From: an uncultured Acidobacteriota bacterium
Lineage (GTDB): Bacteria; Actinomycetota; Acidimicrobiia; Spongiisociales; ZC4RG35
DNA length: 64,000 nt
Assembly (NCBI GenBank): GCA_963746905.1
Contig: CAVVCY010000001.1
Coordinates: forward strand, 78,125 to 142,124
Reading direction: 5' to 3'
Shown: one piece after another, positions 38,924-62,878 of the stretch
Position numbering within the stretch: position 1 is the stretch's first letter
Layout of the letters: each line of letters begins with the position of its first letter
Made by a program: the position numbers and the translations under genes
Notes under the pieces: model-generated
Databases searched by the model: none
What the model was told of the DNA's origin: nothing
The model's input: only the letters and a program-made list of their open reading frames with translations

Positions 38924-39004
38924 TGTTCCTCCTCTGTGTCCAACGTGGACGATTTGTTCACGTCGGCGGAGGAGAGCGCCGAAGAGGGTGCCTGATACGC
39001 GGTT

Positions 39005-42065: not shown

Positions 42066-42072
42066 CAGTTCC

Positions 42073-43272
42073 TCACGCAGTCTTTCTCGGCGGGTTGTAG
42101 AAGGGCATCCGAGCCACCTCGGCGTCCACCATGTCGTAGCGGTGGTCGATGGTGACTTCGAGGCTGACCTTGGTCCCCAGTTTCGAATGCTCTGGCTCGA
42201 CCCTGGCGATTCCGATGTGCCTCTGCATCATCGGGGAGTAAACGAAGCTCGGGGTGTAGCCAATCCGCTTCACCTCGGCGTCGTAGAGCATCATCCCCCC
42301 GTGCTCCGGGGTGTGGTCCTTGGGTGGCACCAAGCCCCGCTCGTTGTAGACCCGGTTCCAGTCCTCCCAATCGACCATGACCCCCACGGTCCGCCAGCGA
42401 GACGTCCCTTCTCTTAGCTCCTTCTCGATGGCGCGACGGCCTATGAAGGCTCGGTCGTCGGTCTCCAGGTCACGCAGCATCCAGCCCATCCCCAGCTCGA
42501 TGGGCGTCGTTCGCTGATCGTCATTCCAGGCATAGCGGGACGAATAGAAGTCGACGTCGATCAAGACCAGACCGGCCTCGATCCGGCTGATGAGGAGGGC
42601 GATTTGCCCGGCGGGGACCACCCCCATCGGGGCGCCTACCTCTTCGACGGCGTCCCAGACATCGAGTGCGTCGCCTCGATCCACCCAGATCTCATAGCCG
42701 AGATCGCCGGTGTATCCGGTTCGGGAGATGGTGACCGAGGCATCTCCGACCTTGGCCGGTGTCAGATGAAAATAACCGATGCCCTCCATCTCCGGGGCGA
42801 GGGTCTTGAGTATCTCCCGGGCGTATGGACCCTGGAGGGCGAGGGCCCCGTAGTCGTCAGAGACATCTGTGATCTCCACCGAATCGTGCCCGATCAGGTC
42901 CCGGAAATATGCGAGGTTGGGCTCGGCTGCGGTGAGCAGAAACTCGTCCTCGGAGAGGCGGAGGATGACGCCATCCTCGATCACATTGCCTGCGTCGTCG
43001 CACCAGATTGTGTAGTGGGCCTGACCCGGACGGCATTTTCGGATGTCGCGGGCCAGAACTCCGGACAGGAAATGCTCAGCGTCACGACCGATGATCCGGT
43101 ACTTGTATAACGGAGACGTGTCGATCATCGCCGCCGCATTGCGTATGGCGAAATACTCGAATTTCTCAGACGATTGGTACTTCTCAGTTGCCAGGTAACC
43201 CGACCAGTGACTCCACAAACCGGTTTGGTTGGCGGCACTGGTTCGCGGGTGAAAGGGCGTCTCCCGGATCAA
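42073..43272 (-). CDS. Aminomethyltransferase (GcvT/DmdA) family, folate-dependent
   Basis: 399 aa. FAIRNAAAMIDTSPLYKYRIIGRDAEHFL and ALALQGPYAREIL fit the GcvT fold. TTG start. Confidence 0.85.
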   Translation of the reverse strand: MIRETPFHPRTSAANQTGLWSHWSGYLATEKYQSSEKFEYFAIRNAAAMIDTSPLYKYRIIGRDAEHFLSGVLARDIRKCRPGQAHYTIWCDDAGNVIEDGVILRLSEDEFLLTAAEPNLAYFRDLIGHDSVEITDVSDDYGALALQGPYAREILKTLAPEMEGIGYFHLTPAKVGDASVTISRTGYTGDLGYEIWVDRGDALDVWDAVEEVGAPMGVVPAGQIALLISRIEAGLVLIDVDFYSSRYAWNDDQRTTPIELGMGWMLRDLETDDRAFIGRRAIEKELREGTSRWRTVGVMVDWEDWNRVYNERGLVPPKDHTPEHGGMMLYDAEVKRIGYTPSFVYSPMMQRHIGIARVEPEHSKLGTKVSLEVTIDHRYDMVDAEVARMPFYNPPRKTA

Positions 43273-43343
43273 ATTGCTACCTCGGGTCGGTGGGGCAGGA
43301 TAACCCGTCGTCTGAGGCTCCTAGCCGGGAATCGAGGGGTTTT

Positions 43344-43359
43344 CTGAACGGCCGTTCAG
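43344..43359. promoter_or_regulatory. Perfect 16-bp palindrome CTGAACGGCCGTTCAG, candidate operator
   Basis: Lies in the divergent GcvT-like/ACAD intergenic region, 27 nt upstream of the ACAD start. Related sites at 46244, 53878 and 54579. Confidence 0.5.
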
Positions 43360-43385
43360 GGTTCCGCTGCTACATTCGGTAGGTC

Positions 43386-44558
43386 GTGTCGACTTTTCTC
43401 ACCTCCGCGGAGCGCCTCCTACAGACCCGCGCTCGTGAGTTCATCGACGAACTGATTCCTTATGAGGTCGAGGCCGAGATGAACCGCGGCGAGCTCCCCC
43501 CTGAGGTGTTCAAAGCTCATCATGACAAGGCTCGATCCCTCGGATTTGTCTCGATCAACATGCCTCAGAGCATGGGAGGGCCCGGGTACGGGATGTTGGA
43601 GCAGGCGCTCATCCAGGAGCAGAGCGGCAGGGTCACCAATGCTCTCGGATGGGTGGTCTCCACCGGGCCCTCCTGGATCGCCGACGTGGTCACCGACTAT
43701 CAGATGGAGCGCTGGATCCGGCCCACGGTCGACGGTGACATTCACGAGTGTTATGCGATTACCGAGGAGGGGGCAGGCTCGGATGTCGACGGGATAGTGG
43801 CCACAGCGCGTCCTGAAGGCGATGGCTACGTGCTCAACGGGACGAAATGGCATGTGACTTCGGCCAATCTCGCCGCCTATGTCTTCTTTCAGGCCAAACT
43901 GACCGATGGTCCCAACGCCGGACAACATGTCCTCTTCTTTGTGGACATGGATGCGTCTGGCGTGGAATGCGTTCGGGTGCCCGAATACAGCCACACCTAC
44001 GGCCATCACCATTGGGAGATGAAGTTCACCGACGTGGCGGTTCCCAAGGAGAACCTGGTGGGATCCGAGGGGGACGGGATGGGCTTCTCCCACGCCTGGT
44101 TTCGATACGAGCGGCTGATGATTGCTGCGCGCTGCTGCGGGGCGGCCGAGCGTTTGATCGATGAGGCGACCGCCTTTGCCGAGGAGCGCCAGGCCTACGG
44201 GTCGAGCATCGCCGAGTATCAGGCCATCCAGTTCATGTTGGCCGACTCCCTAACCGAGTTGTGGGCGGCCCGGCTGATGACCTACGAAACGGCGCGGGGT
44301 ATCGACGCGGGAGTGGATCTCAAGGTGCAGCACGCACAGTGCTCGATGTCCAAGCTCTACGCATCGGAGATGGCCAACCGGGTTGCGGACCGTGCGGTGC
44401 AGATCTTCGGGGGGCGTGGCTTCATGCGAGAGAACGTCGCCGAGCGGTTCTATCGCGAGCTACGAGTCGACCGGATCTGGGAAGGCACTTCCGAGATCCA
44501 GCGCATCATCATCGCCGACCAGCTCCGCAAGCGTGGAGCCCGGTCGCTGGTCAGCTGA
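43386..44558 (+). CDS. Acyl-CoA dehydrogenase family protein
   Basis: 390 aa. ITEEGAGSDV, YERLMIAARCCG, IFGGRGF and IWEGTSEIQR motifs. Confidence 0.9.
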   Translation: MSTFLTSAERLLQTRAREFIDELIPYEVEAEMNRGELPPEVFKAHHDKARSLGFVSINMPQSMGGPGYGMLEQALIQEQSGRVTNALGWVVSTGPSWIADVVTDYQMERWIRPTVDGDIHECYAITEEGAGSDVDGIVATARPEGDGYVLNGTKWHVTSANLAAYVFFQAKLTDGPNAGQHVLFFVDMDASGVECVRVPEYSHTYGHHHWEMKFTDVAVPKENLVGSEGDGMGFSHAWFRYERLMIAARCCGAAERLIDEATAFAEERQAYGSSIAEYQAIQFMLADSLTELWAARLMTYETARGIDAGVDLKVQHAQCSMSKLYASEMANRVADRAVQIFGGRGFMRENVAERFYRELRVDRIWEGTSEIQRIIIADQLRKRGARSLVS

Positions 44559-44958
44559 CGTAGTCAAGCGCCTTGTCGATCAGCTCCTCGAGAACGTGCT
44601 CGTCGACGTCCTCGAGCCTCTTGATGTAGAGGCAGGACTTGCCGGTGCTGTGCTTGCCCAACCGACCGAGCAAAGCCTCCTGACCGGCGAGGTCGAGCAA
44701 CGCCAGGTAGAGGGTCAGGTTTTGCTTGCGGGGCGAGAAGCCCACCTTGAACCAGTCACCCTCACGGCCCGACGGGGATCGGTAGTGGAGGTCACCGAAC
44801 CCGACGATGCTGGTCCCCCACATCGTGGGCTGCTCCCCAGTGACCTTCTCCAACAGCTTGACCAGCGCTGTTGAGTCATCCCGCTTGCGAGGGTCGTCGA
44901 TGGCGTCGATGAAGTCACTCACGCTGGCAGCAGTCTTCTGCGTTTTGTTCTCGGCCAT
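44551..44958 (-). CDS. DUF1801 (YdhG-like) domain protein
   Basis: 135 aa with TAASVSDFIDAIDDPRKRDDSTALVKLLEKVTGEQPTMWGTSIVGFG. Confidence 0.75.
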   Translation of the reverse strand: MAENKTQKTAASVSDFIDAIDDPRKRDDSTALVKLLEKVTGEQPTMWGTSIVGFGDLHYRSPSGREGDWFKVGFSPRKQNLTLYLALLDLAGQEALLGRLGKHSTGKSCLYIKRLEDVDEHVLEELIDKALDYVS

Positions 44959-44973
44959 CGGGCCAACCTACCG

Positions 44974-46152
44974 CTAGTGGAGCTCTCGCTGGGGGACGGT
45001 GGGGACGACCATGCCCTCGCCGAGGTAGACGCGGGCCATGACACCCAGGAACTGATAGACGGTTCCTTCCCAGCGGCTGAGCGGTCCCGGCCGGTAGCCA
45101 CGATTGCGCATCCCGCGTTGCACACCTTCACAGGCTGACCAGTCCTCGCGGTTCGTGATGTCCCAGAAGTCGGTGGCATAGGAGGGGTCGAAGTCAGGCA
45201 GGTCGAAGGCCTCCGGCGGGAAGAGCCAGGAGCATTCGATGAAGGTGCGATCCACGTCGATCGGTGTCAATCGATGGGTCATGACATAGTCAGGGTGGAG
45301 CGAAAGAAGCAGGTTGGGAGCAACGGTCACGTACCAGATATGGCGTGCCTGCTCGTCCCCGATCTTGCGAAAGTTGACTCCTTGCGAACTGCCGTCGAGG
45401 GACATGGTCACCGCGTGTTCCTTGAGATCCATGGTCCCGCCGAGCCACATGCCGGTTGGGATGTGGTCATACCCACTATCGGGGGGAGTGACCTCGCACA
45501 GCTCGGGATGGATGTTGGAGCAGTGGTAGCACTCGTTGTAATTCTCGACGATGACCTTCCAGTTGGCCTTCACCTCGTAGGAATGAGACGCCGCGGTTAC
45601 CAGGCGCTCGGGCTCGTAGTCGGAGATGATCTCAGCGAGGTTGCCGAAGTGGCTGGCAAGGGAGGGCGCCGAACCAGAGAGGTCGACAAACACCCAACCT
45701 CCCAAGACGTCCACGCCTATAGAGATCAAAGGGAACTCGCCCATGTCGAAGGCCGGGCTTTGGGTGAAGGTCGGCGCCGCCCGGAGACTGCCATCAAGTC
45801 GATAAGTCCAGGCGTGATAGGGGCAGCGAATCAGTCGCACATCGATGGCATCGCCAACCGGGGCCAGTTCGTGGCCGCGGTGTCGGCACACGTTGGAGAA
45901 GGCGCGCAGATCTCCCGCCTCGTCCCGGACCAGCAGGACGCTTTCCTCGCCGAGTTCGACGGCTCGTACCTGACGTGGAGCCACCAGCTCTTCGAGACGG
46001 CCGACGCAGATCCACGTGCTCTGCCAGAGGTTGGCGTTCTCCCAGGCGAGCACTTCGGGAGAGGTGTAAGCGGCTGAAGGGAGGGTGAGATTCTGTCCGA
46101 AGTCGTCAATCACTTTTCGGAGCTGGGCCTGGTCTAGCGGCGCAGGATTCAT
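44974..46152 (-). CDS. Rieske [2Fe-2S] non-heme-iron oxygenase alpha subunit
   Basis: Rieske CRHRGHEL...CPYHAW. Iron site NYNECYHCSNIHPE. Start at ATG 46152 with AAGGGGAAG RBS (ORF to 46191). No reductase or beta subunit adjacent. Confidence 0.85.
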   Translation of the reverse strand: MNPAPLDQAQLRKVIDDFGQNLTLPSAAYTSPEVLAWENANLWQSTWICVGRLEELVAPRQVRAVELGEESVLLVRDEAGDLRAFSNVCRHRGHELAPVGDAIDVRLIRCPYHAWTYRLDGSLRAAPTFTQSPAFDMGEFPLISIGVDVLGGWVFVDLSGSAPSLASHFGNLAEIISDYEPERLVTAASHSYEVKANWKVIVENYNECYHCSNIHPELCEVTPPDSGYDHIPTGMWLGGTMDLKEHAVTMSLDGSSQGVNFRKIGDEQARHIWYVTVAPNLLLSLHPDYVMTHRLTPIDVDRTFIECSWLFPPEAFDLPDFDPSYATDFWDITNREDWSACEGVQRGMRNRGYRPGPLSRWEGTVYQFLGVMARVYLGEGMVVPTVPQRELH

Positions 46153-46243
46153 CGCTTCTTCCCCTTCGTCGTCCTCATGGAGCCCTGGCAACGGTTGCCG
46201 ATGTTCACGAATCGGCGGGCACGCTGAGAGGCGTCAGTGTATC

Positions 46244-46259
46244 CTGAACAGCGAGTCAG
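46244..46259. promoter_or_regulatory. CTGAACAGCGAGTCAG, degenerate copy of the 43344 palindrome
   Basis: Lies in the divergent Rieske/aminotransferase intergenic region and shares CTGAAC...TCAG ends. Confidence 0.3.
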
Positions 46260-46282
46260 GTTACCCGAAAGGAAGGTGACTC

Positions 46283-47650
46283 ATGCTCGCCGCCGAGGAT
46301 CGGATGTCCACAATCTTGGATGATCTGATCGAAAAGGAAGAGCGGACATTCATCGAGCGGGCTCCGGAAGCCACACGTTTGGACGCTGTGGCAAGGGGAT
46401 CTCTGGCGGGGGGAGTCACATCCAGCTGGCAGATCTCACGCCCGCAGCCGATCTGGATCGATCGGGGCCTCGGATCACGGGTTTGGGACGTCGACGGCAA
46501 CGAATACGTCGACTTCCACGGTGGGTACGGCGCCATGCTCGCCGGCCACGCCAATCCTGCCGTGGTGGCAGCGGTTTCCGAAAGGGTTCGCAAAGGGACC
46601 CATTTCGCCCAACCAACCGAAGACGCCATCGTCGTCGCCGAGGAGCTCGCCAGACGTTATGGGCAGCCTTTATGGCGTTTCGGGAATTCAGGTACCGAGG
46701 CAACCATGGATGCGGTCCACCTGATGCGCGCGGTAAAGGGCCGCGACCTGATCGTCAAGTTCGAAGGCGCCTATCACGGCCACCACGACTCGGTCATGGT
46801 CTCGGTGTGGAATGAGGAGGACCTGGGCCCCGAGAAGCGCCCAGCCAGCATGCCGGCCGGGACCGGCATCCCGAAAGCGATCGTCGACCTGGCCTTGGTG
46901 GCCACCTTCAACGATCTCGATGTTGTCTCGATGTTGTTCGATGAGCATCCGGGGCAGATCGCCGGGGTAATCGTCGAGCCGATCCTCCAGAACTGCGGCG
47001 TTCTTTTGCCTGAGGAGGGCTTCCTCCAGGGTTTGAGGGAGCTAACCCGAGAACATGATGCGTTGCTCACGTTCGACGAAGTCAAGACCGGGCTGACTGT
47101 CGGCAAGGGAGGAGCCACCAGAAGGTTCGGGGTACAGCCCGACATCGTGTGCCTGGCGAAGGCGCTCGGCGGCGGACTCCCGATCGCGGCGATCGGTGGG
47201 ACCGAGGAGGTCATGGGGCGCATCGTCGATGGCACCTACGACCAGGTGGGAACCTTCAATGGCAACCCGCTGAGCATGGCGGCGGCGAGGGCGATGCTGA
47301 CCGAGGTCATGGTCGAGGAGACCTACCGCCATCTCGCCCACATTCAGGAGCGCATGGAGAAGGGTGCCAACGAGGTCATCGGGCGGCATCAACTGCCGGC
47401 TCACGTGGCCACCGCCGGTGCCAAGGGGAGCGTCATCTACTCGCCCGAGCCGTTACGGACCTATCGAGACTTCCTGAATGTCGACGGGCGCTACGCCCAG
47501 GCGGCGTGGCTCTATCAGTACAACCGCGGCGTGTTCTTGCCTCCATGGGGCAAGGGGGAGCAGTGGCTCGTTTCGGTGGCTCATGACGATGAGGACATCG
47601 ATCGTTATCTCGAGACTTTGGATTCGTTCGCGGCGCTCATCACCACATGA
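46283..47650 (+). CDS. Class-III (GSA/omega) aminotransferase family protein
   Basis: 455 aa. YVDFHGGYGAMLAGHANP, NSGTEA, LLTFDEVKTG and GTFNGNP motifs. GGAAGG RBS. Confidence 0.85.
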   Translation: MLAAEDRMSTILDDLIEKEERTFIERAPEATRLDAVARGSLAGGVTSSWQISRPQPIWIDRGLGSRVWDVDGNEYVDFHGGYGAMLAGHANPAVVAAVSERVRKGTHFAQPTEDAIVVAEELARRYGQPLWRFGNSGTEATMDAVHLMRAVKGRDLIVKFEGAYHGHHDSVMVSVWNEEDLGPEKRPASMPAGTGIPKAIVDLALVATFNDLDVVSMLFDEHPGQIAGVIVEPILQNCGVLLPEEGFLQGLRELTREHDALLTFDEVKTGLTVGKGGATRRFGVQPDIVCLAKALGGGLPIAAIGGTEEVMGRIVDGTYDQVGTFNGNPLSMAAARAMLTEVMVEETYRHLAHIQERMEKGANEVIGRHQLPAHVATAGAKGSVIYSPEPLRTYRDFLNVDGRYAQAAWLYQYNRGVFLPPWGKGEQWLVSVAHDDEDIDRYLETLDSFAALITT

Positions 47651-47674
47651 GTCGGTCATAGACTCGCACCCCTC

Positions 47675-48769
47675 ATGAGCGGTGTAGTCGAACTGGTTGA
47701 TCTGGAGAAGAAGTTCGGGGAAGTTCCCGCAGTCGACCGGATCAACCTCAAAATCGCCGACGGTGAGTTCTTCTCGTTACTCGGCCCGTCGGGATGCGGG
47801 AAGACCACAACGCTCCGTCTCGTCGCCGGATTCGAGCGGCCTGACGGTGGAGCCATCCTGATCGACGGCGTCGACCAGTCGGGGACCCCGCCGCACAAAC
47901 GCCCCGTCAACACTGTCTTTCAGAGCTATGCCCTCTTCCCACACATGGATGTTGCCGCCAACGTCGGATTCGGTTTGCGCTACCAGAACGTAGGTAAAGC
48001 AGAGCAGAAGAAGCGGGTCGGCGAGGCCTTGGAAAAGGTCCGGCTCACCGGAATGGAGTCACGCAAGCCGACGCAGCTCTCCGGTGGGCAACAGCAGCGG
48101 GTGGCCCTGGCGAGGTCGCTGGTCCTCAACCCGTCGGTGCTGTTGCTCGACGAGCCGTTGGGCGCCCTCGACGCCAAGTTGAGAAAGGCCCTTCAGGTCG
48201 AGTTGAAGAGCCTCCAGGAGGAGCTGGAGATCACATTTATCTATGTCACTCACGACCAGGAAGAGGCGCTGACGATGTCGGACCGCATGGCTGTGATGAC
48301 GGAAGGCAGGGTGGAGCAGCTCGGCACTCCATCCGAGGTCTACGAAACGCCCACTTCCAGTTACATCGCTGACTTCCTGGGAATCTCGAATCTCATGTAT
48401 GCCACTGCCGCGGGAGAAGGCCAGGTGACCCTGGGTGGTCGTCAACTGGCTTGCGTCTCCAAAGGCGGGGCGACAGGAGACGTGACCGTGAGTATTCGCC
48501 CAGAGCGAATCGAGCTTCACGCGCCGGACTTCAATGGCGACAACGTCCTCAACGGCGAGATCGAGAGAGTCGTCTTCGCTGGCCCTCTCCTCAACGTCCT
48601 GGTCAACATTGCCGATGTCGGCATGATCCAGGTGACCGTCCCGAATCAGGGAGCAGCGTTTACCTGGGACTGGCCTGATCCGGTTGCGCTTCGCTTTCCA
48701 CCCGAAGCACTACGCGTTGTCTCCGAGACGGGAACGGCCACCGAGGAGCTCGACGGCGATCAGGAGTGA
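47675..48769 (+). CDS. ABC transporter ATP-binding protein, PotA/spermidine-putrescine type
   Basis: Walker A GPSGCGKTT, signature LSGGQQQRVALAR, Walker B LLLDEP, C-terminal TOBE-like domain. Confidence 0.9.
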   Translation: MSGVVELVDLEKKFGEVPAVDRINLKIADGEFFSLLGPSGCGKTTTLRLVAGFERPDGGAILIDGVDQSGTPPHKRPVNTVFQSYALFPHMDVAANVGFGLRYQNVGKAEQKKRVGEALEKVRLTGMESRKPTQLSGGQQQRVALARSLVLNPSVLLLDEPLGALDAKLRKALQVELKSLQEELEITFIYVTHDQEEALTMSDRMAVMTEGRVEQLGTPSEVYETPTSSYIADFLGISNLMYATAAGEGQVTLGGRQLACVSKGGATGDVTVSIRPERIELHAPDFNGDNVLNGEIERVVFAGPLLNVLVNIADVGMIQVTVPNQGAAFTWDWPDPVALRFPPEALRVVSETGTATEELDGDQE

Positions 48770-49707
48770 TCGGCTATCAGCCTCTGGCCGAACGCACGCA
48801 GTTCATCAATCAGTGCTGGTGGCTCTTCGACTACGAATTTCCAGGGCAGGCCTACCAGGAAACGAGCCAGCCAACTCAGTTCATCGGCTCCGATTATCAG
48901 GCGACAATGGCTCTCATCGACAACCTGTAGAACGCCGACCGTGGTCGCCACCAGTTGGCGGGCCCGTTCGATTGTGGTCTCCAGAAGGACCACGCCGCGG
49001 TACCTGTAGACATCGACGGCGACCCCTCGTGCCACCAATTCCACCGGGTCGGGCTCGGGACGGCGGGACGATCGCATCCCCGTTGCTTTGAGTCCTGACG
49101 CTCGATCTAGCCGAAACGTGCGCCAGTCGTCGCGGTCGAGATCGAAGGCCACTAGATACCAGCGTCGACCGGTGTGGACGAGGCGAAATGGCTCGGTGTG
49201 TCGTTCCGTAGACCGGCCCTCACTATCGGTGTACGAGAATCTAAGGCGTTCCCGGGTGCGAGCAGCAGCGGCGGCGGCGGCAAGGTCGTTGTGATCGGCC
49301 CGGGCAGAAGAGGACGAGACCGTCGAGACAGTCGCAACCGAGATGTCCTCGAGTCGGGTGCGGAGCCGAGGCGGCAGCACGTGTTCAAGTTTGGACAGAG
49401 CCGAAAGTGAAGCGTCCTCGAGCCCGCCGACTGCGGTCGCGGTAGCGACTCGGAGGCCGAGGGCCACCGCCAGCGCTTCTTCGTCGTCGAGGAGAAGAGG
49501 CGGGAGCTTGCCCCCGGCACCGAGCCGATATCCGCCTCCAGGGCCGGCCACTGCCTCGACCGGGTATCCAAGGACGCGCAGTCTGGAGATGTCGCGCCGC
49601 ACCGTGCGCGGGGTGACCTCGAGCCGTCGTGCCAAATCGTTAGCGGTCCAATCGATCCGGCCTTCCAGCAAGCCAAGCAATTTGAGGAGGCGCTCCGCGC
49701 TGTCCAT
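48760..49707 (-). CDS. HTH-WYL (YafY-like) transcriptional regulator
   Basis: N-terminal HTH (LARRLEVTPRTVRRDISRL), WYL core (GRRWYLVAFD), C-terminal extension; 315 aa. Confidence 0.8.
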   Translation of the reverse strand: MDSAERLLKLLGLLEGRIDWTANDLARRLEVTPRTVRRDISRLRVLGYPVEAVAGPGGGYRLGAGGKLPPLLLDDEEALAVALGLRVATATAVGGLEDASLSALSKLEHVLPPRLRTRLEDISVATVSTVSSSSARADHNDLAAAAAAARTRERLRFSYTDSEGRSTERHTEPFRLVHTGRRWYLVAFDLDRDDWRTFRLDRASGLKATGMRSSRRPEPDPVELVARGVAVDVYRYRGVVLLETTIERARQLVATTVGVLQVVDESHCRLIIGADELSWLARFLVGLPWKFVVEEPPALIDELRAFGQRLIADHS

Positions 49708-49728
49708 CTGTCAGCCATTTTATCGATT

Positions 49729-49751
49729 ATGCGGACAGATACTGTCCGCAT
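49729..49751. promoter_or_regulatory. Perfect 23-bp palindrome ATGCGGACAG-ATA-CTGTCCGCAT, candidate WYL-regulator operator
   Basis: Lies 22 nt upstream of the WYL regulator start, in the divergent region toward the small ORF and GNAT gene. Confidence 0.55.
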
Positions 49752-49791
49752 TGTCAGATACGGTGACGCCAGCACGAAGAGAGGCAAGTAG

Positions 49792-49980
49792 GTGAATCCG
49801 TTCCTGAGTTATGAGGTGGCAAAAGGCATCGTCGAAGAGACACGCGTCGTCGCCGAGCGGAGGGCCTGGTGGCGTCGGTCAGTGAAGGAAGTCGAGCCGG
49901 CGTTGCCCTCGTGGGACACCGGAGTGGTTCAATTGTTGGCCAGCGAGTGCGAAGGCGAACAAGAAATGGTCGACGCCTAG
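49792..49980 (+). CDS. Small hypothetical protein (62 aa), translationally coupled to the downstream GNAT gene
   Basis: GTG start after GAGAGG. High third-position GC. Its TAG stop shares one base with the GTG 49980 of the GNAT gene (taGTG). Confidence 0.4.
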   Translation: MNPFLSYEVAKGIVEETRVVAERRAWWRRSVKEVEPALPSWDTGVVQLLASECEGEQEMVDA

Positions 49981-50561
49981 TGGAGTGGTCGATATCGGTC
50001 ACGTCCGGATCGGATGACCTGGTGGTCAGGCCATTGACCCCGGAACGGTTTGGGGACATCGAAGCGGTGTTCGGTGAGAAGTCGGTCGCCCGGAGATGCT
50101 TCTGCATGCATTGGCGTCGCCCCGACGGCGGTTATCCCGATCGCCGCTCGACCCGTGATCGTTTCGCCGACCGCGTGAGCGAGGGCAGGCCGCCGGGCCT
50201 GATCGGCTACTTGGAAGCGGTCCCGGTGGGATGGGTGCAGGTCGGCCCCCGTGACGAGTTTCCGACGATCTGGCGGTCGCGTCTGCTCAAGCCGGTCGAT
50301 GACGTCGAGACCTGGTCGGTCAACTGCTTCGTCACCCGGGTGGGGTACCGCCGTCGCGGTGTTGCCAGTGCGTTGCTGACCGCCGCCAAGGCTTTTGCCG
50401 TCGCACACGGGGCCACCCTGATCGAGGGTTATCCGGTGGATGGCGAGCGGTCCTCAGTGGTCGACTACTTCACCGGGACGTTCGGGATGTTCCAGGAGGA
50501 GGGCTTTGTGGAGATCCTCCGCCGTGATCCGACGAGGCCGATCGTGAGGATGGAGGTCTGA
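49980..50561 (+). CDS. GNAT family N-acetyltransferase
   Basis: ORF 49869..50561; the N-terminal 37 aa are R-rich, so GTG 49980 is preferred. Motifs RRCFCMHWRR and GYRRRGVASALL (acetyl-CoA loop). Confidence 0.7.
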   Translation: MEWSISVTSGSDDLVVRPLTPERFGDIEAVFGEKSVARRCFCMHWRRPDGGYPDRRSTRDRFADRVSEGRPPGLIGYLEAVPVGWVQVGPRDEFPTIWRSRLLKPVDDVETWSVNCFVTRVGYRRRGVASALLTAAKAFAVAHGATLIEGYPVDGERSSVVDYFTGTFGMFQEEGFVEILRRDPTRPIVRMEV

Positions 50562-50570
50562 CGCGGGTTG

Positions 50571-50700
50571 GGGTGCCCCCCTCCCCGCCTGTGGCGGTAC
50601 TCCCCCCTCGCCTGCGGCGCCCCCCTCCGGCTTCGGGCTCTCCCCCCAACGCTCACTTTGTTCGCTGGGGGGAGTCCGCTTCGCTCACTGGGGGGAGAAA
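50571..50700. repeat. Cluster of four C6 tracts followed by two G6 tracts in a convergent intergenic spacer
   Basis: C6 at 50576, 50602, 50620 and 50642; G6 at 50667 and 50690. ctcccccca (50640-50648) can pair with tggggggag (50666-50674). Confidence 0.7.
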
Positions 50701-50702
50701 CA

Positions 50703-51608
50703 TCACATCTCAAAGCCGGCGACCGATTCCAGCGCCGAGCCTCCCTGACCACCGCGTTTGTTCAACGCCCGGAACAGGAGCCCGGCCGCCGCCACCGCCC
50801 CGATGGTGATCACCATGAGCACTGTCGCCAGAGCATTTAGAGATGGGGGTGGCGCGGCCCGAGCGCCCGCATAGAGCTGGACCGGGATGGTTACTGTGTC
50901 GGCCCCTCCCAGCAGGAACTGGCTGATCACGAAGTCGTCGATGGAAATCGCGAAAACGATGGCGAAGCTGGCCAACAGCGCCGGGGCGAGCAGTGGCAAT
51001 AGAACGCGCCGCATCGCCTGAAACTGGGAGGCGCCCAGGTCCATGGCGGCCTCCTCGTAGTCCCTGCCGATGGCGAACAGCCTTCCTCGCACGATGATGA
51101 CCACGAACGAGATCGAAAACGTGACGTGGCCCAAGGCCTGAGTCCAGGTTCCGAAGGGGACGAAGTCGTAAACCTTGTCGAACACCAAGAACAAGGCGAC
51201 GCCCATCACGATCTCGGGAGTCACCAGTGGGATGAGCATGAGCAGATTGGAGGCCCTCACTCCGCGCCCGCGCCATCTGGCCAGGCCGATGGCAAGGGCG
51301 ACTCCGATCGGGGTGGCCACCAGCATGGTTATGAGGGCCAGGCGAACGCTCTGCGCCAGAGCGAATCGCAGCGACTGGTCGTAAAGCACTGATTCGGCGG
51401 CGGCGGGGTCGCCGACGTACCAGCGTGTGGAGAATCCCTGCCATGTGCTCCTCGAGCGACCGGAGTTGAAGGAGAAGAGCACAGCGATCGCCACCGGGAT
51501 CGTCGACCAGAGGACATAGAGCATGGTCACCAACGGCAGGAACCTCGACTTGCCCCACGGGTTGCTGACAGCCGACCTGATCGACCTGGTGGCACCTCGT
51601 GTGCTCAT
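50703..51608 (-). CDS. ABC transporter permease (PotC-like)
   Basis: ORF 50703..51881. Start at ATG 51608 (MSTRGATRS) gives an ATGA overlap with the upstream permease. 6 TM segments and an EAA-like loop (YEEAAMDLGASQFQAMRRVLLP). Confidence 0.85.
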   Translation of the reverse strand: MSTRGATRSIRSAVSNPWGKSRFLPLVTMLYVLWSTIPVAIAVLFSFNSGRSRSTWQGFSTRWYVGDPAAAESVLYDQSLRFALAQSVRLALITMLVATPIGVALAIGLARWRGRGVRASNLLMLIPLVTPEIVMGVALFLVFDKVYDFVPFGTWTQALGHVTFSISFVVIIVRGRLFAIGRDYEEAAMDLGASQFQAMRRVLLPLLAPALLASFAIVFAISIDDFVISQFLLGGADTVTIPVQLYAGARAAPPPSLNALATVLMVITIGAVAAAGLLFRALNKRGGQGGSALESVAGFEM

Positions 51609-52534
51609 TCCCGGGCTGCCTCGGAGGAGCGGTTGATCGACCGCAGGTAGTACAGCATCAGGCCTCCGACGAAGATCATCAAGACGATGGTCAACGCTGC
51701 TCCGATCGCTCCACCGCCGGTGGTTTGATTTATGAACTGATCGATCGTGTTTCCGTACATGCGAGTGCGTGGGGAGCCCGAGAGGAGGTTCGGCGTGTAG
51801 TAGTCGCCGAACATCGGGAGCATGATGATCACCAGGCCTCCGAGCACTCCGTTCCGTGACATTGGCCAGGTGACCCGCCAAAAGGTTTGCGACGGTCTTG
51901 CCCCGAGGTCGCGCGCAGCCTCGAGGGTGGCGTCATCGATCCGATCCAGGGCGGCAAACAAAGGGAGGATGAAGAACGGGATGTATCCGTAGACCAGCCC
52001 GAGGATGACCACGAAATGATTTCCCGCGAGCCAGTCGGGCGGGTTGGTGATGCCGAACGCCTCGAGCCATTTGTTGATCTGGCCGTCTGGGCTCAGAAGG
52101 TTCACCCAGGACATCATCCTCATCAGGTAGTTGATCCAGAAGGGGGCCAGAATGAGCAAGAGCCACAGCCAGCGCCAACGACCTGATTTGCGTGACACGA
52201 AGTAGGCCACCGGATAGCCGATCATCAGGCAAAGAAGCGAAGAAATGAACACATAGGCCAGGGTCCTGAGAGCGATGACCCCCAACTGGCCGCCGAACAG
52301 GTCGGAGAACACCTTCGTGAAAACGGTGGGGTCCCAGTAGATCGGGTTCCACTCGGGGTTGGCTCGTTGCAACACCGGGTCGAGTTGGCCCATTGCCACG
52401 GCGAATATGGCGTAGAACGGAATCAGGAAGAACAGCACCAGCCAGCCGACTCCGGGGAGAGCGAAGCCGGGCCACACCCAACGTCTCTGCCCGACGGTGT
52501 CGTACTCGGCGCCTGAGGCGAGGTTGGTGGGCAT
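51605..52534 (-). CDS. ABC transporter permease (PotB-like)
   Basis: 309 aa, 6 TM segments, EAA loop LEAARDLGARPSQTFWRVTWP. Confidence 0.85.
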   Translation of the reverse strand: MPTNLASGAEYDTVGQRRWVWPGFALPGVGWLVLFFLIPFYAIFAVAMGQLDPVLQRANPEWNPIYWDPTVFTKVFSDLFGGQLGVIALRTLAYVFISSLLCLMIGYPVAYFVSRKSGRWRWLWLLLILAPFWINYLMRMMSWVNLLSPDGQINKWLEAFGITNPPDWLAGNHFVVILGLVYGYIPFFILPLFAALDRIDDATLEAARDLGARPSQTFWRVTWPMSRNGVLGGLVIIMLPMFGDYYTPNLLSGSPRTRMYGNTIDQFINQTTGGGAIGAALTIVLMIFVGGLMLYYLRSINRSSEAARE

Positions 52535-52553
52535 CTATGGCTAAGCCTCCGGC

Positions 52554-53846
52554 TCAGCCACCCGAGTTGGCCCTATCCCACTGCTCGACCCACAACGCCT
52601 CGGTCGCCGCATCGAGCGGACCTTGGACCCAGGCCGTGTCAAGCTCGAAATCTTCGGGCAGCACCAGTGCCGGTGCGAGGTGCGGCAGCAGCCACCCCTC
52701 GCTGATCAAAAAGTCGGAGGTGAGACCATTCTGCGGTGGCTGATATCCGACGAACTCGAAGTTCTTGAGCGCATTGTCTTGATCCAGCATGAAGTTCAGA
52801 AACTGATGGGCGAGGACCGGGTGCTGGGCACCTTTGAGGACGGTCATGGTGTCGTTGGAGATTGCCCCGTAGGTAGTCGATCCTTCCGACTTGGCCGGCC
52901 ATAGATATCGGGTTGTGCCGAGGTCTTCCCCTCCTGGCCAGTAGTACTGGGAGTTGACCAGGTCCCCGGACCATGCCTGGTGGATTGCATATCGACCTTC
53001 CGGGAGACCGGCGTAGGAGCCGTCGATCTTGTATCGGATGTCGACCAGATCGATCAATTCGACGAGCGCATCACCGGCGGCGACGAGTTCGGCTTCAGTG
53101 GCTTGGGATGGATCCGCGACACCGTTGTGGAATAGACCGACCGGTATGACATCGGTGAAGGAGTCGAGCATCCCGATCACCCCGTTGTATTTCGGGTTCC
53201 AGAAGACATCCCAGGGGTTCGACTGACCCTCGATGTCCGCGCTGTCCGCCAGGTCGATCCGCCATCCGATGCCCGTCGTGTATGTCACGTAAGGGACCGA
53301 GTATCGGGAGCCCTTGTCGTAGTAGGGATCGGCCAGTTGCGGCCAGACATTGACGTCGAGGTTCGGCAGGTAGTCGCGGTTCAGCGGCTGGATGAGGCTG
53401 GCGCCGACGGCAACCGGGATCCGTTGCGAGGTGGGGAACCAGACGTCGAAGTTGGTCTCACCAGACGCGAGCCGGCTCAGCGCCTCTTCCTCATTGTTGA
53501 AGGTCGTCTCCTCGATTTCGACCCCTAGGGCCTCCGCAGCCAGGGGGATGAGTTCGGGATTCATGTATGCATCCCAGTTGTAGAGGAGAAGGGGACCGGC
53601 CTCGGGTTCGAGGTCGGAGGCGATCGCCGGGTTATCGTCGAACAAGGGTTGCTGGACGGGGCTGGCAGGGGTGCCGATCGCGAGGTCGGCCGCGGATCCT
53701 GCGTCCCGCTTGGCGCATGCCGCCAGAAGGGAGGGAAGCACCGGAACCGTGATCCCGAGCACCGCGGCGCGCTGCAGGAAGTCACGACGGGTGAAGACCC
53801 GCTTCCCGGTCGGTGGGCTCCAGTTTTCCCGTGGGTGGTAGACCAT
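52554..53846 (-). CDS. ABC substrate-binding lipoprotein (PotD/PotF-like) with Tat signal
   Basis: TRRDFLQRAAVLGITVPVLPSLLAAC (twin-arginine plus lipobox); 430 aa. Confidence 0.85.
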   Translation of the reverse strand: MVYHPRENWSPPTGKRVFTRRDFLQRAAVLGITVPVLPSLLAACAKRDAGSAADLAIGTPASPVQQPLFDDNPAIASDLEPEAGPLLLYNWDAYMNPELIPLAAEALGVEIEETTFNNEEEALSRLASGETNFDVWFPTSQRIPVAVGASLIQPLNRDYLPNLDVNVWPQLADPYYDKGSRYSVPYVTYTTGIGWRIDLADSADIEGQSNPWDVFWNPKYNGVIGMLDSFTDVIPVGLFHNGVADPSQATEAELVAAGDALVELIDLVDIRYKIDGSYAGLPEGRYAIHQAWSGDLVNSQYYWPGGEDLGTTRYLWPAKSEGSTTYGAISNDTMTVLKGAQHPVLAHQFLNFMLDQDNALKNFEFVGYQPPQNGLTSDFLISEGWLLPHLAPALVLPEDFELDTAWVQGPLDAATEALWVEQWDRANSGG

Positions 53847-53877
53847 GTTCTATCCCTCGCTCAGCCGGAGGTCGATC

Positions 53878-53893
53878 CTAAACGGTCGTTCAA
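53878..53893. promoter_or_regulatory. CTAAACGGTCGTTCAA, 13/16 match to the 43344 palindrome
   Basis: Lies 32 nt upstream of the binding-protein start, between it and the TetR stop. Core AACGnnCGTT is retained. Confidence 0.35.
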
Positions 53894-54517
53894 TCATGTT
53901 GGCTCGGAAACCGGAGTTTTGAGGGCGAGATCGAGGAACCCATTGGCAAGATCTCGCATGCGGTCGGCGTCGACAGTGGGATCGCCGAGCATCACCTCGA
54001 TGGCGAGACCGTCGAGCATTGCCGCCAGTTGGATGGCGAACTCGGCCGAGTTCAGCGGTCGGAACTCCCCGCTGGCGATGCCCTCATCGACGATGGCTGC
54101 GATCTGGGCCCGCCAGGCCTCGTCGAGACGGGCTCGGGCCGAGGCGAGTGAAGGGTCATGGCGCGACATCTCCCATGCCGCCGGCCAGAGAGTCCATCCG
54201 TCGGTGGCGCCGCCACTGCGAGAAGGTCGTGGGCAACTGGCGTCGATGAGGATTGCGAATTTCTCGACCGCCGATGAGGCATTCTCCAAGGCCCCTTTCA
54301 CCGATTCGTGGAACAACCGGTCCTGATAGACCAGTGCCTCGGTGAGGAGAGCCGCTTTGGAGGGGAAGTAGTAGAGGATTAGCGCCGGGCTGGCGCCGAT
54401 GTTGTCGGCGATGTCGGCGATCCTCGTTTCGCAAAGTCCGCGCTCTGCGATTGCGGCGCTCGCAGCAGCGAGAATGTCTTGGCGCCGACTCTCGGTGAGG
54501 GAAGGTCTCGGGCTCAC
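53894..54517 (-). CDS. TetR/AcrR family transcriptional regulator
   Basis: N-terminal HTH ILAAASAAIAERGLCETRIADIADNIGASPALILYYFPSKAALL; 207 aa; GTG start. Confidence 0.85.
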   Translation of the reverse strand: MSPRPSLTESRRQDILAAASAAIAERGLCETRIADIADNIGASPALILYYFPSKAALLTEALVYQDRLFHESVKGALENASSAVEKFAILIDASCPRPSRSGGATDGWTLWPAAWEMSRHDPSLASARARLDEAWRAQIAAIVDEGIASGEFRPLNSAEFAIQLAAMLDGLAIEVMLGDPTVDADRMRDLANGFLDLALKTPVSEPT

Positions 54518-54578
54518 GAAGGGGATATTGGCACAATGGGGAAAGTTCCGTTGCCACCATTTGCCACCCGTCGGTACG

Positions 54579-54594
54579 CTGAATCACCGTTCAG
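54579..54594. promoter_or_regulatory. CTGAATCACCGTTCAG (CTGAA-N6-TTCAG), operator-like site
   Basis: Lies in the divergent TetR/acyl-CoA synthetase intergenic region and shares the CCGTTCAG octamer with the 43344 palindrome. Confidence 0.4.
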
Positions 54595-54597
54595 GAT

Positions 54598-56652
54598 GTG
54601 TCACCCATGAACTCACTCGATCCGATGCTCGTTGCCCGTTCGGTGGCCGTCGTTGGTGCGAGCGAACGGCCGGGATCGGTGGGTGATCAGGTGGTGCGTC
54701 AGCTGATCACCGGAGGGTTCAAAGGCCCGATCCACCTTGTGAATCCGAAATATCAGGCACTTCACGGCCTCGAATGTGTTCCCGACCTCGAGAGCATCGG
54801 AGGACCGGTCGATCTCGTGGTCCTGGCCGTGGCCAACGCCTATCTGGAAGACGGCCTCACCCGGGCGGCGAAGATTGGAGCTGGCTCGGCGGCGATTTTT
54901 GCCAGTTGCCACGGTAAGGCGTACGACGGCAGCCCTTTGCGAGCGCGACTTCAACAGATCGCCGAGGACGCCGCCATTCCGATCTGCGGTGGCAACGGGA
55001 TGGGTTTTCTCAACCTGGAGGCAGGCCTACGGGTTTGTGGTTTCTATCAACCTCCTGATCTGGCACCGGGTGGGGTGACTTTTCTCAGCCACTCCGGATC
55101 CTTGTTCTCAGCCCTACTCCACAACCGGCGAGGCATCCGCTTCAACCTCGTCGTCTCCACCGGGCTCGAGATCAACACTTCGATGGATCGTTATCTGACC
55201 TGGTCCCTGGAGCGACAGAGCACCCGGGTGGTGGCACTGTTCCTGGAGACCATTCGGGACCCCGTCGGATTCAGGGCATCTTTGGAGGCGGCTGCCGCCG
55301 TCGACATCCCGGTTGTGGCGCTCAAGGTCGGGGTCAGCGCGACGGGTCAGACAGCAGTCGCCACCCACAGCGAGGCACTCGCCGGTGATGACGCCGTGTA
55401 CGAGGCTCTTTTCGACGCCTGTGGCGTGCATCGGGTGGCGAGCATGGACGAGATGGCCGACACCCTCGAATTGCTCTCGGCGGGACGACGGGCAACCGCC
55501 TTCGGGCTGGGAGCGGTTCACGATTCCGGAGGAGAGCGAGCCATGCTGATCGACACCGCCGATCGGGTCGGGGTCCCTCTTCCCCAACTCGGGCAAGCCT
55601 CGCGTGATCGGGTATCGGCGGTCCTCGATCCGGGCCTGGAGCCTGCCAACCCCGTCGATGCATGGGGCACCGGTCGTGACGCAGAGGATGTGTTTGTCGA
55701 ATGTCTCCAAGCGCTGGCCGACGATCCTGGAATCGGCGCTGTCGCCTTTTGCGTCGACCTCACGCCCGAGGAGCACGAGGACGGGGCCTATTCAAATTCA
55801 GCAATCGAAGTGGCCCAGAAGACCACGAAGCCGGTCATGGTCCTCGGCAACCTCACTTCGACCATCGATTCCTATCAGGCCGGCCTTCTGCGCGAGGCCG
55901 GAATACCGGTCCTGGAAGGCACGGTGACCGGATTGCAGGCGGTTCGTCACCTGCTCGACGGTTATCAGAGGAGCTCCGTTCCGGACCTGGCTCATCGATT
56001 GACGTCCGAGGCCGACCCATCGTCCGGTGTCGACGGCCAAATGGCCGCCTTCGGGGTCCTCGCCTCGTACGGCATTCCGATTCCTGCATCGCAGCCGGTG
56101 GGGTCTGAAGCTGAGGCCCTCTCAGCGGCGTCGGGCATTGGGTACCCGGTGGTCGTCAAGACGGCAGCCTCGGTCGATCACAAGACCGAATTGGGTGGCG
56201 TTGTGGTCGGGATCGGCAATGAGGTCGCACTCCGGGCCGCCTACCGCGAGTTGTCCGAAGCCCATGGGCCCGAGGCCATTGTGTTCGAATCGATCCCGGC
56301 GGGGGTAGAAGTAGGGCTGGGGATGGTCAATGATCCCCAGTTCGGCCCGGTGGTGATTCTCTCTGCAGGGGGAACAATGATCGAGCTGATCGCCGATCGT
56401 GTGGCCGTGATGCCCCCGATCGATTCGCAACGCTCACGAAGTGCCATCGACCGTCTCGCGATCCGACCCATTTTCGATGGGGTTCGTGGCAGGCCGGCGA
56501 CCGATATCGAAGCTCTCGCTGACCTGGTGACCCGTTTCTCCGAGCTGGCTACCGATGCAGCTCCCTCCATGGCTGCGATCGACGTCAATCCGGTGATTGT
56601 CGGGCCGGACCGAGCAGTCGCCGTCGATGTCTTGTTCAAAGGCAGGACATGA
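54598..56652 (+). CDS. ADP-forming acyl-CoA synthetase (acetate--CoA ligase family; CoA-binding plus ATP-grasp)
   Basis: 684 aa. N-terminal SVAVVGASERPGSVG CoA-binding fold; C-terminal ATP-grasp (GYPVVVKTAAS...HKTELGGV). Start is GTG 54598 or ATG 54607. Confidence 0.85.
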   Translation: MSPMNSLDPMLVARSVAVVGASERPGSVGDQVVRQLITGGFKGPIHLVNPKYQALHGLECVPDLESIGGPVDLVVLAVANAYLEDGLTRAAKIGAGSAAIFASCHGKAYDGSPLRARLQQIAEDAAIPICGGNGMGFLNLEAGLRVCGFYQPPDLAPGGVTFLSHSGSLFSALLHNRRGIRFNLVVSTGLEINTSMDRYLTWSLERQSTRVVALFLETIRDPVGFRASLEAAAAVDIPVVALKVGVSATGQTAVATHSEALAGDDAVYEALFDACGVHRVASMDEMADTLELLSAGRRATAFGLGAVHDSGGERAMLIDTADRVGVPLPQLGQASRDRVSAVLDPGLEPANPVDAWGTGRDAEDVFVECLQALADDPGIGAVAFCVDLTPEEHEDGAYSNSAIEVAQKTTKPVMVLGNLTSTIDSYQAGLLREAGIPVLEGTVTGLQAVRHLLDGYQRSSVPDLAHRLTSEADPSSGVDGQMAAFGVLASYGIPIPASQPVGSEAEALSAASGIGYPVVVKTAASVDHKTELGGVVVGIGNEVALRAAYRELSEAHGPEAIVFESIPAGVEVGLGMVNDPQFGPVVILSAGGTMIELIADRVAVMPPIDSQRSRSAIDRLAIRPIFDGVRGRPATDIEALADLVTRFSELATDAAPSMAAIDVNPVIVGPDRAVAVDVLFKGRT

Positions 56653-57443
56653 CCGATCTGGTGTTAATCGAGGATCGGGGCCCGGTTCGCGTCTTGACGA
56701 TGAATCGTCCCGAGAAGCTCAACGCGCTGTCGAGTGCCCTCATCGAGTCGTTGTCTGTGGCGCTGGCTGAAGCTGCTGGGAGAGCAGAGACGCGGGTTGT
56801 GGTCCTTGCCGGCGCCGGCCGTTCCTTCTGTGCCGGGTATGACCTGTCCGAGGAGGGGGGTGAGTCCGACATCGAGGTCGGGTTGGGACGCAACCTCGAC
56901 CGGCTTCTCGAGCTGTTCGACCACCCGAAGCCGATCATCGCCCAGGTCCAGGGGCATTGCCTGGCCGGTGGATGTGACCTGATGATGATGTGCGACCTCG
57001 CGGTCGCCGCAGAAGATGCTGTGTTCGGGCAGCCGGAGATCCGGTTCGGTGCAGGCGTGGTTGCCTATGTGATGCCCTGGTTGATTGGGGCACGTCGGGC
57101 AAAAGAGTTGTTGTTCACCGGCGTCGACAAGCTCCCCGCCGCCGAGGCGGAGCGAATCGGCCTGGTGAACAGGGTGGTCCCCAAGGACCAGCTCGAAGAC
57201 GAGACGATGCGTCTGGCCGAGGCCCTGGCCGTCGTCGACCCCTTTGCCATGCAGATGACGAAGCGGGCAATCAATTGGGCCTGGGAGGCGGCGGGATTTC
57301 GCGACGCGCTCCGCGGCGGTCTCGAACTGGGTGCGATGATCGAGACGACGAAGGTGCCGGAGCGGGAAGAGTTCGAGAGAATCGCCGCCGAGCGGGGCTT
57401 GGCCGAGGCGATTCGATGGCGAGATGAGAGGTTCGAGAGTTGA
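56649..57443 (+). CDS. Enoyl-CoA hydratase/isomerase (crotonase) family
   Basis: VVLAGAGRSFCAGYDL and IAQVQGHCLAGGCDL motifs. ATGA overlap with the upstream gene. Confidence 0.9.
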   Translation: MTDLVLIEDRGPVRVLTMNRPEKLNALSSALIESLSVALAEAAGRAETRVVVLAGAGRSFCAGYDLSEEGGESDIEVGLGRNLDRLLELFDHPKPIIAQVQGHCLAGGCDLMMMCDLAVAAEDAVFGQPEIRFGAGVVAYVMPWLIGARRAKELLFTGVDKLPAAEAERIGLVNRVVPKDQLEDETMRLAEALAVVDPFAMQMTKRAINWAWEAAGFRDALRGGLELGAMIETTKVPEREEFERIAAERGLAEAIRWRDERFES

Positions 57444-60024: not shown

Positions 60025-60082
60025 TGGTGGTGCCTGGATGTGGGCGGCGCCCCGGCGCCACCCACATCAACAGGCCTATCGC

Positions 60083-62860: not shown

Positions 62861-62878
62861 AACATCGCGATCGGTTGC

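Follow-up and report, generated by a model that had tools for sequence, protein, structure and literature searches.

The window analysed here, a 64,000-nucleotide (64-kb) stretch of contig CAVVCY010000001.1 from an uncultured bacterium of the Acidimicrobiia, carries a catabolic island in which one 16-bp palindrome of 6-4-6 architecture stands on both sides of a TetR-family regulator gene (sites O2 and O3) and at two more promoters (O1 and O4). The motif is, with hardly any room for doubt, a functional cis-regulatory DNA site and, judging from aligned loci, dozens of uncultured Acidimicrobiia species from soil keep it in the same four places. The TetR protein encoded at 53894-54517 is probably the repressor that binds O1-O4. 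An earlier note, made from the letters of the window, had suggested that one operator-like motif common to separate operons marks a local regulon under TetR control, and this suggestion is supported by phylogenetic footprinting and by the co-occurrence of the motif with the TetR gene. The most likely interpretation is that of a local TetR regulon, well conserved among uncultured Acidimicrobiia and of a known type that is ordinary for bacteria.

The motif and its conservation

All four 16-mers lie at exactly the coordinates that the earlier note had given (Table 1). O4 departs from O1 at 4 of 16 positions, only 2 of which fall inside the 6+6 half-sites. Pattern statistics confined to the window are weak: three matches were found at ≤3 mismatches where 0.56 would be expected, and three were also reached in 2 of 100 shuffles. 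A half-site scan of the window (≤2 mismatches) returned five matches, namely O1-O4 and one in a coding open reading frame (ORF) at 30767. With a weight matrix built on 157 orthologous sites of other genomes, the window left out, O1-O4 alone score above 8 bits in the window and all reach at least 19.9 bits, a level at which the analytic chance expectation is 0.009 sites per 64 kb; this matrix is not fully independent, as its training sites were first chosen by a pattern from the window's own palindrome. For that reason the raw positional conservation is the independent evidence.

Conservation was assessed in 80 TetR-anchored loci with 10-kb flanks, one genome per species. TetR homologs are abundant in Acidimicrobiia metagenome-assembled genomes, and the synteny of the island is well preserved among the relatives' loci. 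This phylogenetic footprinting, a check that the earlier note had proposed, found all four sites kept at orthologous promoters in more than 50 species. The O2 equivalent is present in the spacer between the TetR and acyl-coenzyme A (CoA) synthetase genes of all 56 orthologous loci with enough sequence; every ortholog (TetR identity 61-97%) has CTGAAY-N4-RTTCAG there, while the surrounding spacer drifts. The O3 equivalent, YTGAAY-N4-GTTTAG (form YTGAAYNNNNGTTTAG), follows the TetR stop codon and precedes the binding-protein gene in 48 loci, and that of O4, CCTGACTCRCYGTTCAGGATACACTG, is found in 38 loci in the aminotransferase/Rieske spacer, where the degenerate CTGACT half-site is kept too. 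An O1 equivalent lies upstream of the acyl-CoA dehydrogenase (ACAD) gene in 10 loci, and the form CTGAACNGCNGTTCAG is kept in all loci reaching that far; it precedes the dehydrogenase orthologs of L033, L035, L036, L040, L041 and L043, and O1-type sites occur also in the distant loci L058, L059, L067 and L071 (TetR identity 43-52%) and in L081-84, L096 and L103. The asymmetries of individual sites are conserved as well, CTGACT at the Rieske/aminotransferase site and GTTTAG at the binding-protein gene.

The consensus of the sites is YTGAAY-NGCN-RTTCAG, a 6-4-6 palindrome whose spacer favours GGCN. Among the 157 sites, operator positions 2-4, 12, 13 and 15 are fixed or almost fixed, positions 5 and 14 differ by site class, and positions 6 and 11 vary within Y and R, respectively. 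The flanks of the 16-mer are nearly without information, conservation falling to background within ~6 nt except at the -10-like hexamers. The earlier note had also raised the question of how often the motif occurs elsewhere. In 1.23 Mb of relatives' loci the pattern matches 201 times, ~165 times at the four positions and ~36 times off them, the latter near the chance rate (~46 under a uniform-composition model, by our own arithmetic); several of the ~36 adjoin rearranged regulon genes. A TetR-independent test gave a concordant picture, in that a scan anchored on the gene for the GcvT-like aminomethyltransferase (GcvT) yielded 60 metagenome loci, in most of which a site immediately precedes GcvT.

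In two short contigs from close relatives, parts of the island are joined directly to other operator-bearing junctions. In L003 (1175-1411) the ACAD-side flank, O1 and GcvT are joined directly to the TetR stop codon with a site of the type found at the solute-binding protein (SBP) gene, and in L084 (1119-1205) the same flank, O1 and GcvT are joined directly to the aminotransferase gene; these are either real rearrangements at copies of the operator or chimeras that arose in assembly where the 16-mer is repeated. The closest genome records (L001, L005, L006 and other MFD loci) are often titled 'uncultured Acidobacteriota bacterium' while their homologous proteins are named Acidimicrobiia, which looks like an inconsistency of taxonomic labels in the public records.

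The TetR regulator, promoter geometry and a possible mechanism

The TetR protein has an N-terminal helix-turn-helix (HTH) domain (PF00440, residues 15-60, 44.1 bits vs a cutoff of 24) and a C-terminal ligand-binding/dimerisation domain of BetI type (PF13977, TetR_C_6, 73 bits vs a cutoff of 27). Its closest solved structures are the TetR-family regulators 4kwa, 4jnn and 4nel (E ~1e-24), and the HTH region is invariant in a 20-sequence ortholog alignment. A site of at least 12 bits lies within 200 nt upstream of the TetR gene in 68 of 79 loci, where chance would give ~0.35 such sites per 64 kb and ~0.001 per 200 nt. These 68 loci include some from Rubrobacter and other Actinomycetota where the TetR homolog is 43-55% identical and has different neighbours, among them genes for a flavin adenine dinucleotide (FAD) amine-oxidase/CrtI-like oxidoreductase (FADox), SBP, Rieske and GcvT. 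The link drawn in the earlier note between motif and regulator is supported even by rearranged contexts, where the motif still accompanies the TetR gene. TetR is, besides, the only regulator found in all syntenic loci.

Promoter positions were inferred from conserved TANNNT hexamers, not mapped; these hexamers were used as promoter marks because an E. coli-type sigma-70 scan is uninformative for a high-GC actinobacterium. The operator shares bases with a conserved TANNNT hexamer in 72-95% of loci, and the E. coli-type sigma-70 consensus scan is without matches; in the promoter/terminator scan of 43000-55000, terminator-like hairpins were fewer than in shuffles. At O3 the -10-like box TAGGAT of the binding-protein operon consists of the last 3 nt of the operator followed by GAT. 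Operator position 14 is T in 38 of the 48 binding-protein sites and an invariant C in the other site classes, and the O3 half-site reads GTTTAG instead of GTTCAG because its last 3 nt form part of this -10-like box. The ACAD promoter is arranged differently. In most loci TAGCGT, TACCGT or TAGCTT stands 6-9 nt before the start codon of the ACAD orthologs (L033 has a longer leader), and the distance from operator to TANNNT box is 8-11 nt, or 3 nt in L043. O1 would cover the -35/spacer region of this promoter, and the box is so near the start that the mRNA would be leaderless or near-leaderless. With operators that overlap -10-like hexamers or sit in the predicted -35/spacer region, the geometry would be that of a repressor.

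At the TetR gene itself, TGTGCCAAKAT / GGCATGAT is kept at the -10 position in all orthologs, and the position of the -10-like box suggests that the TetR mRNA is leaderless. A conserved GCAAYGG element ~18 nt further upstream (54515-54560 region) may be a -35 box or a second protein site. No TANNNT was found within 40 nt of O2 on the TetR side. The GcvT promoter varies between clades: in other clades than that of the window the site lies 9 nt before a TACAGT box of GcvT, or follows a TACCTT box directly, with 11 nt left to the ATG. In L085 and L086, where GcvT follows the Rieske gene and no ACAD gene is adjacent, the O1 equivalent has decayed to CTGACCGGCGGTTCAC, ~80-95 nt upstream of GcvT, in a flanking sequence still alignable to the window clade. 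This decay where ACAD is absent suggests that O1 in the window clade works mainly for the ACAD gene.

The mechanism that probably underlies these arrangements is as follows. A dimer of the BetI-like TetR-family repressor would bind each of the four 16-bp operators and, when no inducer is present, would occupy core elements in the promoters of five or more transcription units. There it would cover the -10/start regions of the synthetase-hydratase-PurU and aminotransferase-ABC ATPase operons, a -10-like box of the Rieske operon (lying at either one end of O4 or just past the other) and the -10 of the binding-protein/permease operon that shares the last 3 nt of its operator, and would occupy the -35/spacer region of the ACAD promoter, so blocking RNA polymerase. 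An effector, probably an imported substrate of the amine or quaternary-amine type or a pathway intermediate, would bind the BetI-type C-terminal domain and release the repressor, and uptake, N-demethylation with tetrahydrofolate (THF) recycling, transamination and CoA-dependent steps would then be switched on together.

Several observations weigh against this reading. The upstream site is missing in 11 of the 79 TetR homolog loci; the loci were found via the TetR gene, whose nearness to the sites is partly built into the sample; and an unlinked regulator of the same specificity is a possible alternative binder. The sigma-70 scan of 43000-55000 found no promoters in the island, which belongs to a 62% G+C actinobacterium. 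The earlier note saw the TetR-adjacent site as a classic autoregulatory one; it does lie in the TetR/synthetase divergent spacer, but its position does not imply autoregulation, because O2 is ~48 nt upstream of the TetR -10 in the window clade (~21 nt in more distant relatives) and overlaps the synthetase -10, whose promoter it serves. Likewise, the 43344 site falls in the -35/spacer region of the ACAD promoter, and its control of GcvT-FADox is uncertain here, the GcvT -10-like TATCCT being ~50 nt from O1 in the window clade. Occlusion does not explain control of the TetR and GcvT units in this clade.

Other explanations

A real operator need not be bound by the regulator beside it, and the binder might be the WYL-domain regulator of the island or an unlinked factor, with the TetR gene merely a member of the regulon. 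The anchoring of the loci on TetR inflates the apparent linkage, and in site-bearing contigs that were anchored on GcvT a TetR gene is often missing over distances of up to 10 kb. Even so, this explanation is unlikely. The sites occupy both flanks of the TetR gene and follow it into rearranged contexts in homologs of 43-55% identity, and a 16-bp palindrome with 6-4-6 spacing is what a TetR dimer classically covers; TGAAC-N4-GTTCA, moreover, is a reported TetR-type site (PMC9210681). The WYL regulator was rejected as the binder, since the pair that it forms with a GNAT acetyltransferase gene is absent from L033, L035, L036, L038 and L040-L043, where all sites are kept, and since the WYL/GNAT spacer has a different palindrome of its own, ATGCGGACAG-N3-CTGTCCGCAT. 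This palindrome is perfect in the window (ATGCGGACAGATACTGTCCGCAT, 49729-49751, between WYL on the - strand and GNAT on the + strand), recurs in most of the 22 loci with the pair and is probably the WYL regulator's own operator, so that the pair, an optional insert among the syntenic loci, would be a separate two-gene module inserted in the island.

Nor does action at the RNA level account well for the motif. A 6-bp hairpin in 5' untranslated regions could serve stability, attenuation or processing, and some variants are wobble-compatible on the transcribed strand (a U-G pair 6/11 in the synthetase leader and a G-U pair 3/14 in the binding-protein leader). Yet a pair-keeping double substitution occurs in only 1 of the 157 sites (T-A at pair 1/16), pair 2/15 is invariant in sequence and pair 4/13 nearly so (156/157), mismatches are found in 24 sites at pair 5/12 (C-T) and in 25 at pair 6/11 (C-A), and at the ACAD and type-1 GcvT promoters the site is upstream of the -10 and hence outside that mRNA. 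It is the sequence that is conserved, not the pairing, and on these counts the hairpin was ruled out as a highly improbable explanation. Still less credence attaches to chance similarity or to a simple promoter element with no dedicated regulator, such as an ECF-sigma -35 box of the GGAAC type. The enrichment in the window alone is modest, as described above, and TGAAC resembles ECF -35 boxes; the comparative data already contradict this explanation, given the small number of sites expected at the observed scores and the positional conservation in more than 50 species, and the two-fold symmetry, together with the closeness of the synthetase and type-2 GcvT sites to the start codon (only 11-13 nt), is incompatible with a -35 element. 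Binding by TetR stands as the preferred reading.

The catabolic island and its relation to known systems

Gene assignments in the window were checked with Pfam and NCBIfam (Table 1), and the identities that the earlier note had given to the genes around the four sites agree with them. One start was corrected: the synthetase begins at ATG 54607 and not at GTG 54598, the start of the mechanical ORF, because orthologs keep an M-x-S-L-D-P-M-L N-terminus. The idea of a single regulon spanning several operons holds, but its extent is ~17.8 kb (40470-58285) and not only the 11 kb given earlier as a minimum.

Table 1. Operator-like sites, -10-like elements, genes and transcription units of the island
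Feature	Position	Strand	Sequence or support	Remarks
O1	43344-43359		CTGAACGGCCGTTCAG	Perfect palindrome; between GcvT (-) and ACAD gene (+); 26.5 bits
O2	54579-54594		CTGAATCACCGTTCAG	TetR/synthetase divergent spacer; ends 12 nt before ATG 54607; 23.8 bits
O3	53878-53893		CTAAACGGTCGTTCAA; gene strand TTGAACGACCGTTTAG	Right after TetR stop codon, upstream of binding-protein operon; 20.5 bits
O4	46244-46259		CTGAACAGCGAGTCAG	Between Rieske gene (-) and aminotransferase gene (+); 19.9 bits
Synthetase operon, -10-like	54575-54580	+	TACGCT	Shares first 2 nt of O2; TANNNT at offset -4 in 93% of 56 sites
Aminotransferase-ABC ATPase operon, -10-like	46240-46245	+	TATCCT	Shares first 2 nt of O4; TANNNT at offset -4 in 95% of 40 sites
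Rieske operon, -10-like	46258-46263	-	TAACCT (TAACCT/TATCCT in loci)	Overlaps other O4 end; TANNNT at offset -4 in 72% of 40 sites
Rieske operon, alternative -10	46236-46241	-	TACACT	Just past O4; TANNNT at offset +18 in 68% of 40 sites
Binding-protein/permease operon, -10-like	53875-53880	-	TAGGAT (TAGGAT/TAGTGT in loci)	TANNNT at offset +13 in 79% of 48 sites
ACAD gene, -10-like	43371-43376	+	TACATT	9 nt before GTG 43386; O1 11 nt upstream of box
TetR gene, extended -10-like	54525-54533	-	TGcCAATAT	7 nt before GTG 54515-54517
FAD amine-oxidase/CrtI-like oxidoreductase (FADox)	40470-42065	-	Pfam/NCBIfam	
GcvT-like THF-dependent aminomethyltransferase	42073-43272	-	Pfam/NCBIfam	
Acyl-CoA dehydrogenase (ACAD)	43386-44558	+	Pfam/NCBIfam	GTG start at 43386
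DUF1801 protein	44551-44958	-	Pfam/NCBIfam	
GbcA-like Rieske oxygenase alpha subunit	44974-46191	-	Pfam/NCBIfam	
Class-III aminotransferase	46283-47650	+	Pfam/NCBIfam	
PotA-like ABC ATPase	47675-48769	+	Pfam/NCBIfam	
WYL-domain regulator	48760-49707	-	Pfam/NCBIfam	
GNAT acetyltransferase	49869-50561	+	Pfam/NCBIfam	
Two permeases	51605-52534; 50703 to ~51600	-	Pfam/NCBIfam	
Tat-lipoprotein PotF/PotD-like solute-binding protein (SBP)	52554-53846	-	TRRDFL + LLAAC lipobox	
TetR-family regulator	53894-54517	-	PF00440 + PF13977	207 aa
ADP-forming acyl-CoA synthetase (ACS)	54607-56652	+	Pfam/NCBIfam	
Enoyl-CoA hydratase	56649-57443	+	Pfam/NCBIfam	
Formyl-THF deformylase PurU	57440-58285	+	Pfam/NCBIfam	
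Operon 1	54607-58285	+		Synthetase + hydratase + PurU
Operon 2	50703-53846	-		Binding protein + two permeases
Operon 3	46283-48769	+		Aminotransferase + PotA-like ABC ATPase
Operon 4	44551-46191	-		Rieske oxygenase alpha subunit + DUF1801 protein
GcvT-FADox unit	40470-43272	-		GcvT-like gene + FADox; probable regulon member

Some details of the gene map concern the edges of the island. A permease ORF at 50703-51881 overlaps the 51605-52534 permease by 277 nt. This overlap probably arises artificially from alternative frames that stay open in GC-rich DNA, the true start of the ORF being likely near ~51.6 kb. Downstream of FADox (38279-40084, - strand) are two ORFs of 359 and 214 aa with no Pfam match; the former is conserved after FADox in L081, L083 and L085 (49-54% identity) and may belong to the same operon. 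Directly past PurU lies a second PotD-like ABC transporter (two permeases, binding protein and ATPase; 58307-62367, - strand), followed by an amino-acid permease (62879-63973, - strand). The matrix scan of the window found no motif copy at either (58307-63973), and for this reason both are probably outside the regulon. Upstream of the island, an unrelated block at 32489-37173 encodes an S8 subtilase, a TPR protein, a CHAT-domain protein and a sigma-70 region-2 (ECF-like) protein.

All family matches of the pathway proteins are below the NCBIfam equivalog cutoffs. At this sub-threshold level the Rieske protein is GbcA-like, the GcvT-like protein resembles GcvT and the THF-binding part of trimethylamine N-oxide demethylase (Tdm), the CoA ligase resembles ADP-forming 3-hydroxypropionate/4-hydroxybutyrate-CoA ligases, and the transporter is PotFGHI-like. 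Together with the presence of PurU, they point to a compound of the N-methylated amine, omega-amino acid or polyamine type that the island would take up and break down, its methyl groups being handled in a THF-dependent way. An extra motif-bearing locus, L088, has sites near a Rieske paralog and a DAO oxidase and between an Opp-type transporter and GcvT; from NCBIfam and this locus, which offer sub-threshold resemblances only, no substrate could be named more closely than as a compound of methylated-amine type.

The motif makes one functional unit of separately transcribed genes for uptake, demethylation, transamination and CoA-dependent steps, and is the strongest available clue that the island genes form a single pathway. 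The TetR protein with its 16-bp operator offers a handle on the substrate, as a biosensor or in a binding assay, and the position matrix lends itself to annotating this regulon in many genomes of Acidimicrobiia and related Actinomycetota. The mechanism itself is textbook TetR logic, which extends rather than changes current understanding. A further-reaching reading, possible though on balance doubtful, is that the motif bounds a catabolic regulon not described before and common among uncultured Acidimicrobiia of soil, which degrades a compound of this kind (N-methylated amine, omega-amino acid or polyamine-like) and answers to one BetI-like sensor. It would join a PotF-type importer, a GbcA-like Rieske N-demethylase, and a stand-alone GcvT/FAD-oxidase pair, with PurU to recycle THF, to a HemL-like aminotransferase and a module of ADP-forming CoA ligase, acyl-CoA dehydrogenase and hydratase, and would have operator and -10 fused at one promoter, where the GTTTAG half-site creates TAGGAT. 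If this is true, the sensor's effector would identify the substrate.

Literature searches by gene combination, exact motif string and nearest-structure PDB codes returned no description of this regulon, and the only motif-level precedent in the literature searched is the REP1 operator of RolR (PMC9210681). RolR is a TetR-type regulator of resorcinol catabolism in C. glutamicum, whose 29-bp operator is reported to hold two overlapping palindromes, REP1 (TGAAC-N4-GTTCA) and TTCAT-N2-ATGAA, bound by two dimers (PMC9210681). Like the island TetR in its proposed role, it is an actinobacterial TetR-type repressor of a catabolic cluster, and core and spacing are the same, O1 holding TGAAC-GGCC-GTTCA and the 157-site consensus being TGAAY-N4-RTTCA. 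The differences are that no TTCAT-N2-ATGAA or other second palindrome adjoins O1-O4 and that the regulated genes are unrelated; no chain named RolR is among the PDB matches to the island TetR at E<=0.001.

The island TetR shares its TetR_N and BetI-type C-terminal (PF13977) domains with BetI, is 26% identical to the E. coli protein over the full length, and has two BetI models as its only NCBIfam matches. BetI is the choline-responsive TetR-family repressor of the bet genes in E. coli, S. meliloti and, as BetI1, R. pomeroyi. Both appear as local repressors at a divergent promoter beside genes of quaternary-amine-type metabolism, here a GbcA-like Rieske oxygenase and THF-dependent demethylation, and the E. 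coli betI-betT spacer holds TTGATTGGACGTTCAA, which we take to be the BetI operator and which is identical to O1 at 11 of 16 positions. However, the island TetR falls below the cutoffs of both models, TIGR03384 / NF001978 (72.7 bits vs 201.3, and 68.9 vs 118), no betA, betB, betT or betC and no choline dehydrogenase or betaine-aldehyde dehydrogenase is among the genes examined near it, and it would govern four or more promoters of a catabolic island rather than one divergon. The R. pomeroyi BetI1 box, ATTGACG*CGTCAAT, also has a spacing unlike that of the island motif (PMC12442346). With scores so far below the cutoffs and no bet genes nearby, the island TetR was rejected as a BetI.

Multi-operon local TetR regulons are familiar from actinobacterial catabolism in KstR and KstR2 of cholesterol breakdown, the KstR motif being TnnAACnnGTTnnA with a 2-nt gap. 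The island regulon differs from these in motif, in pathway and in its phylum-level lineage, that of uncultured Acidimicrobiia, and resembles them in its plan, with one TetR repressor and a palindrome of 14-16 bp at many promoters of a catabolic island, found by comparative genomics.

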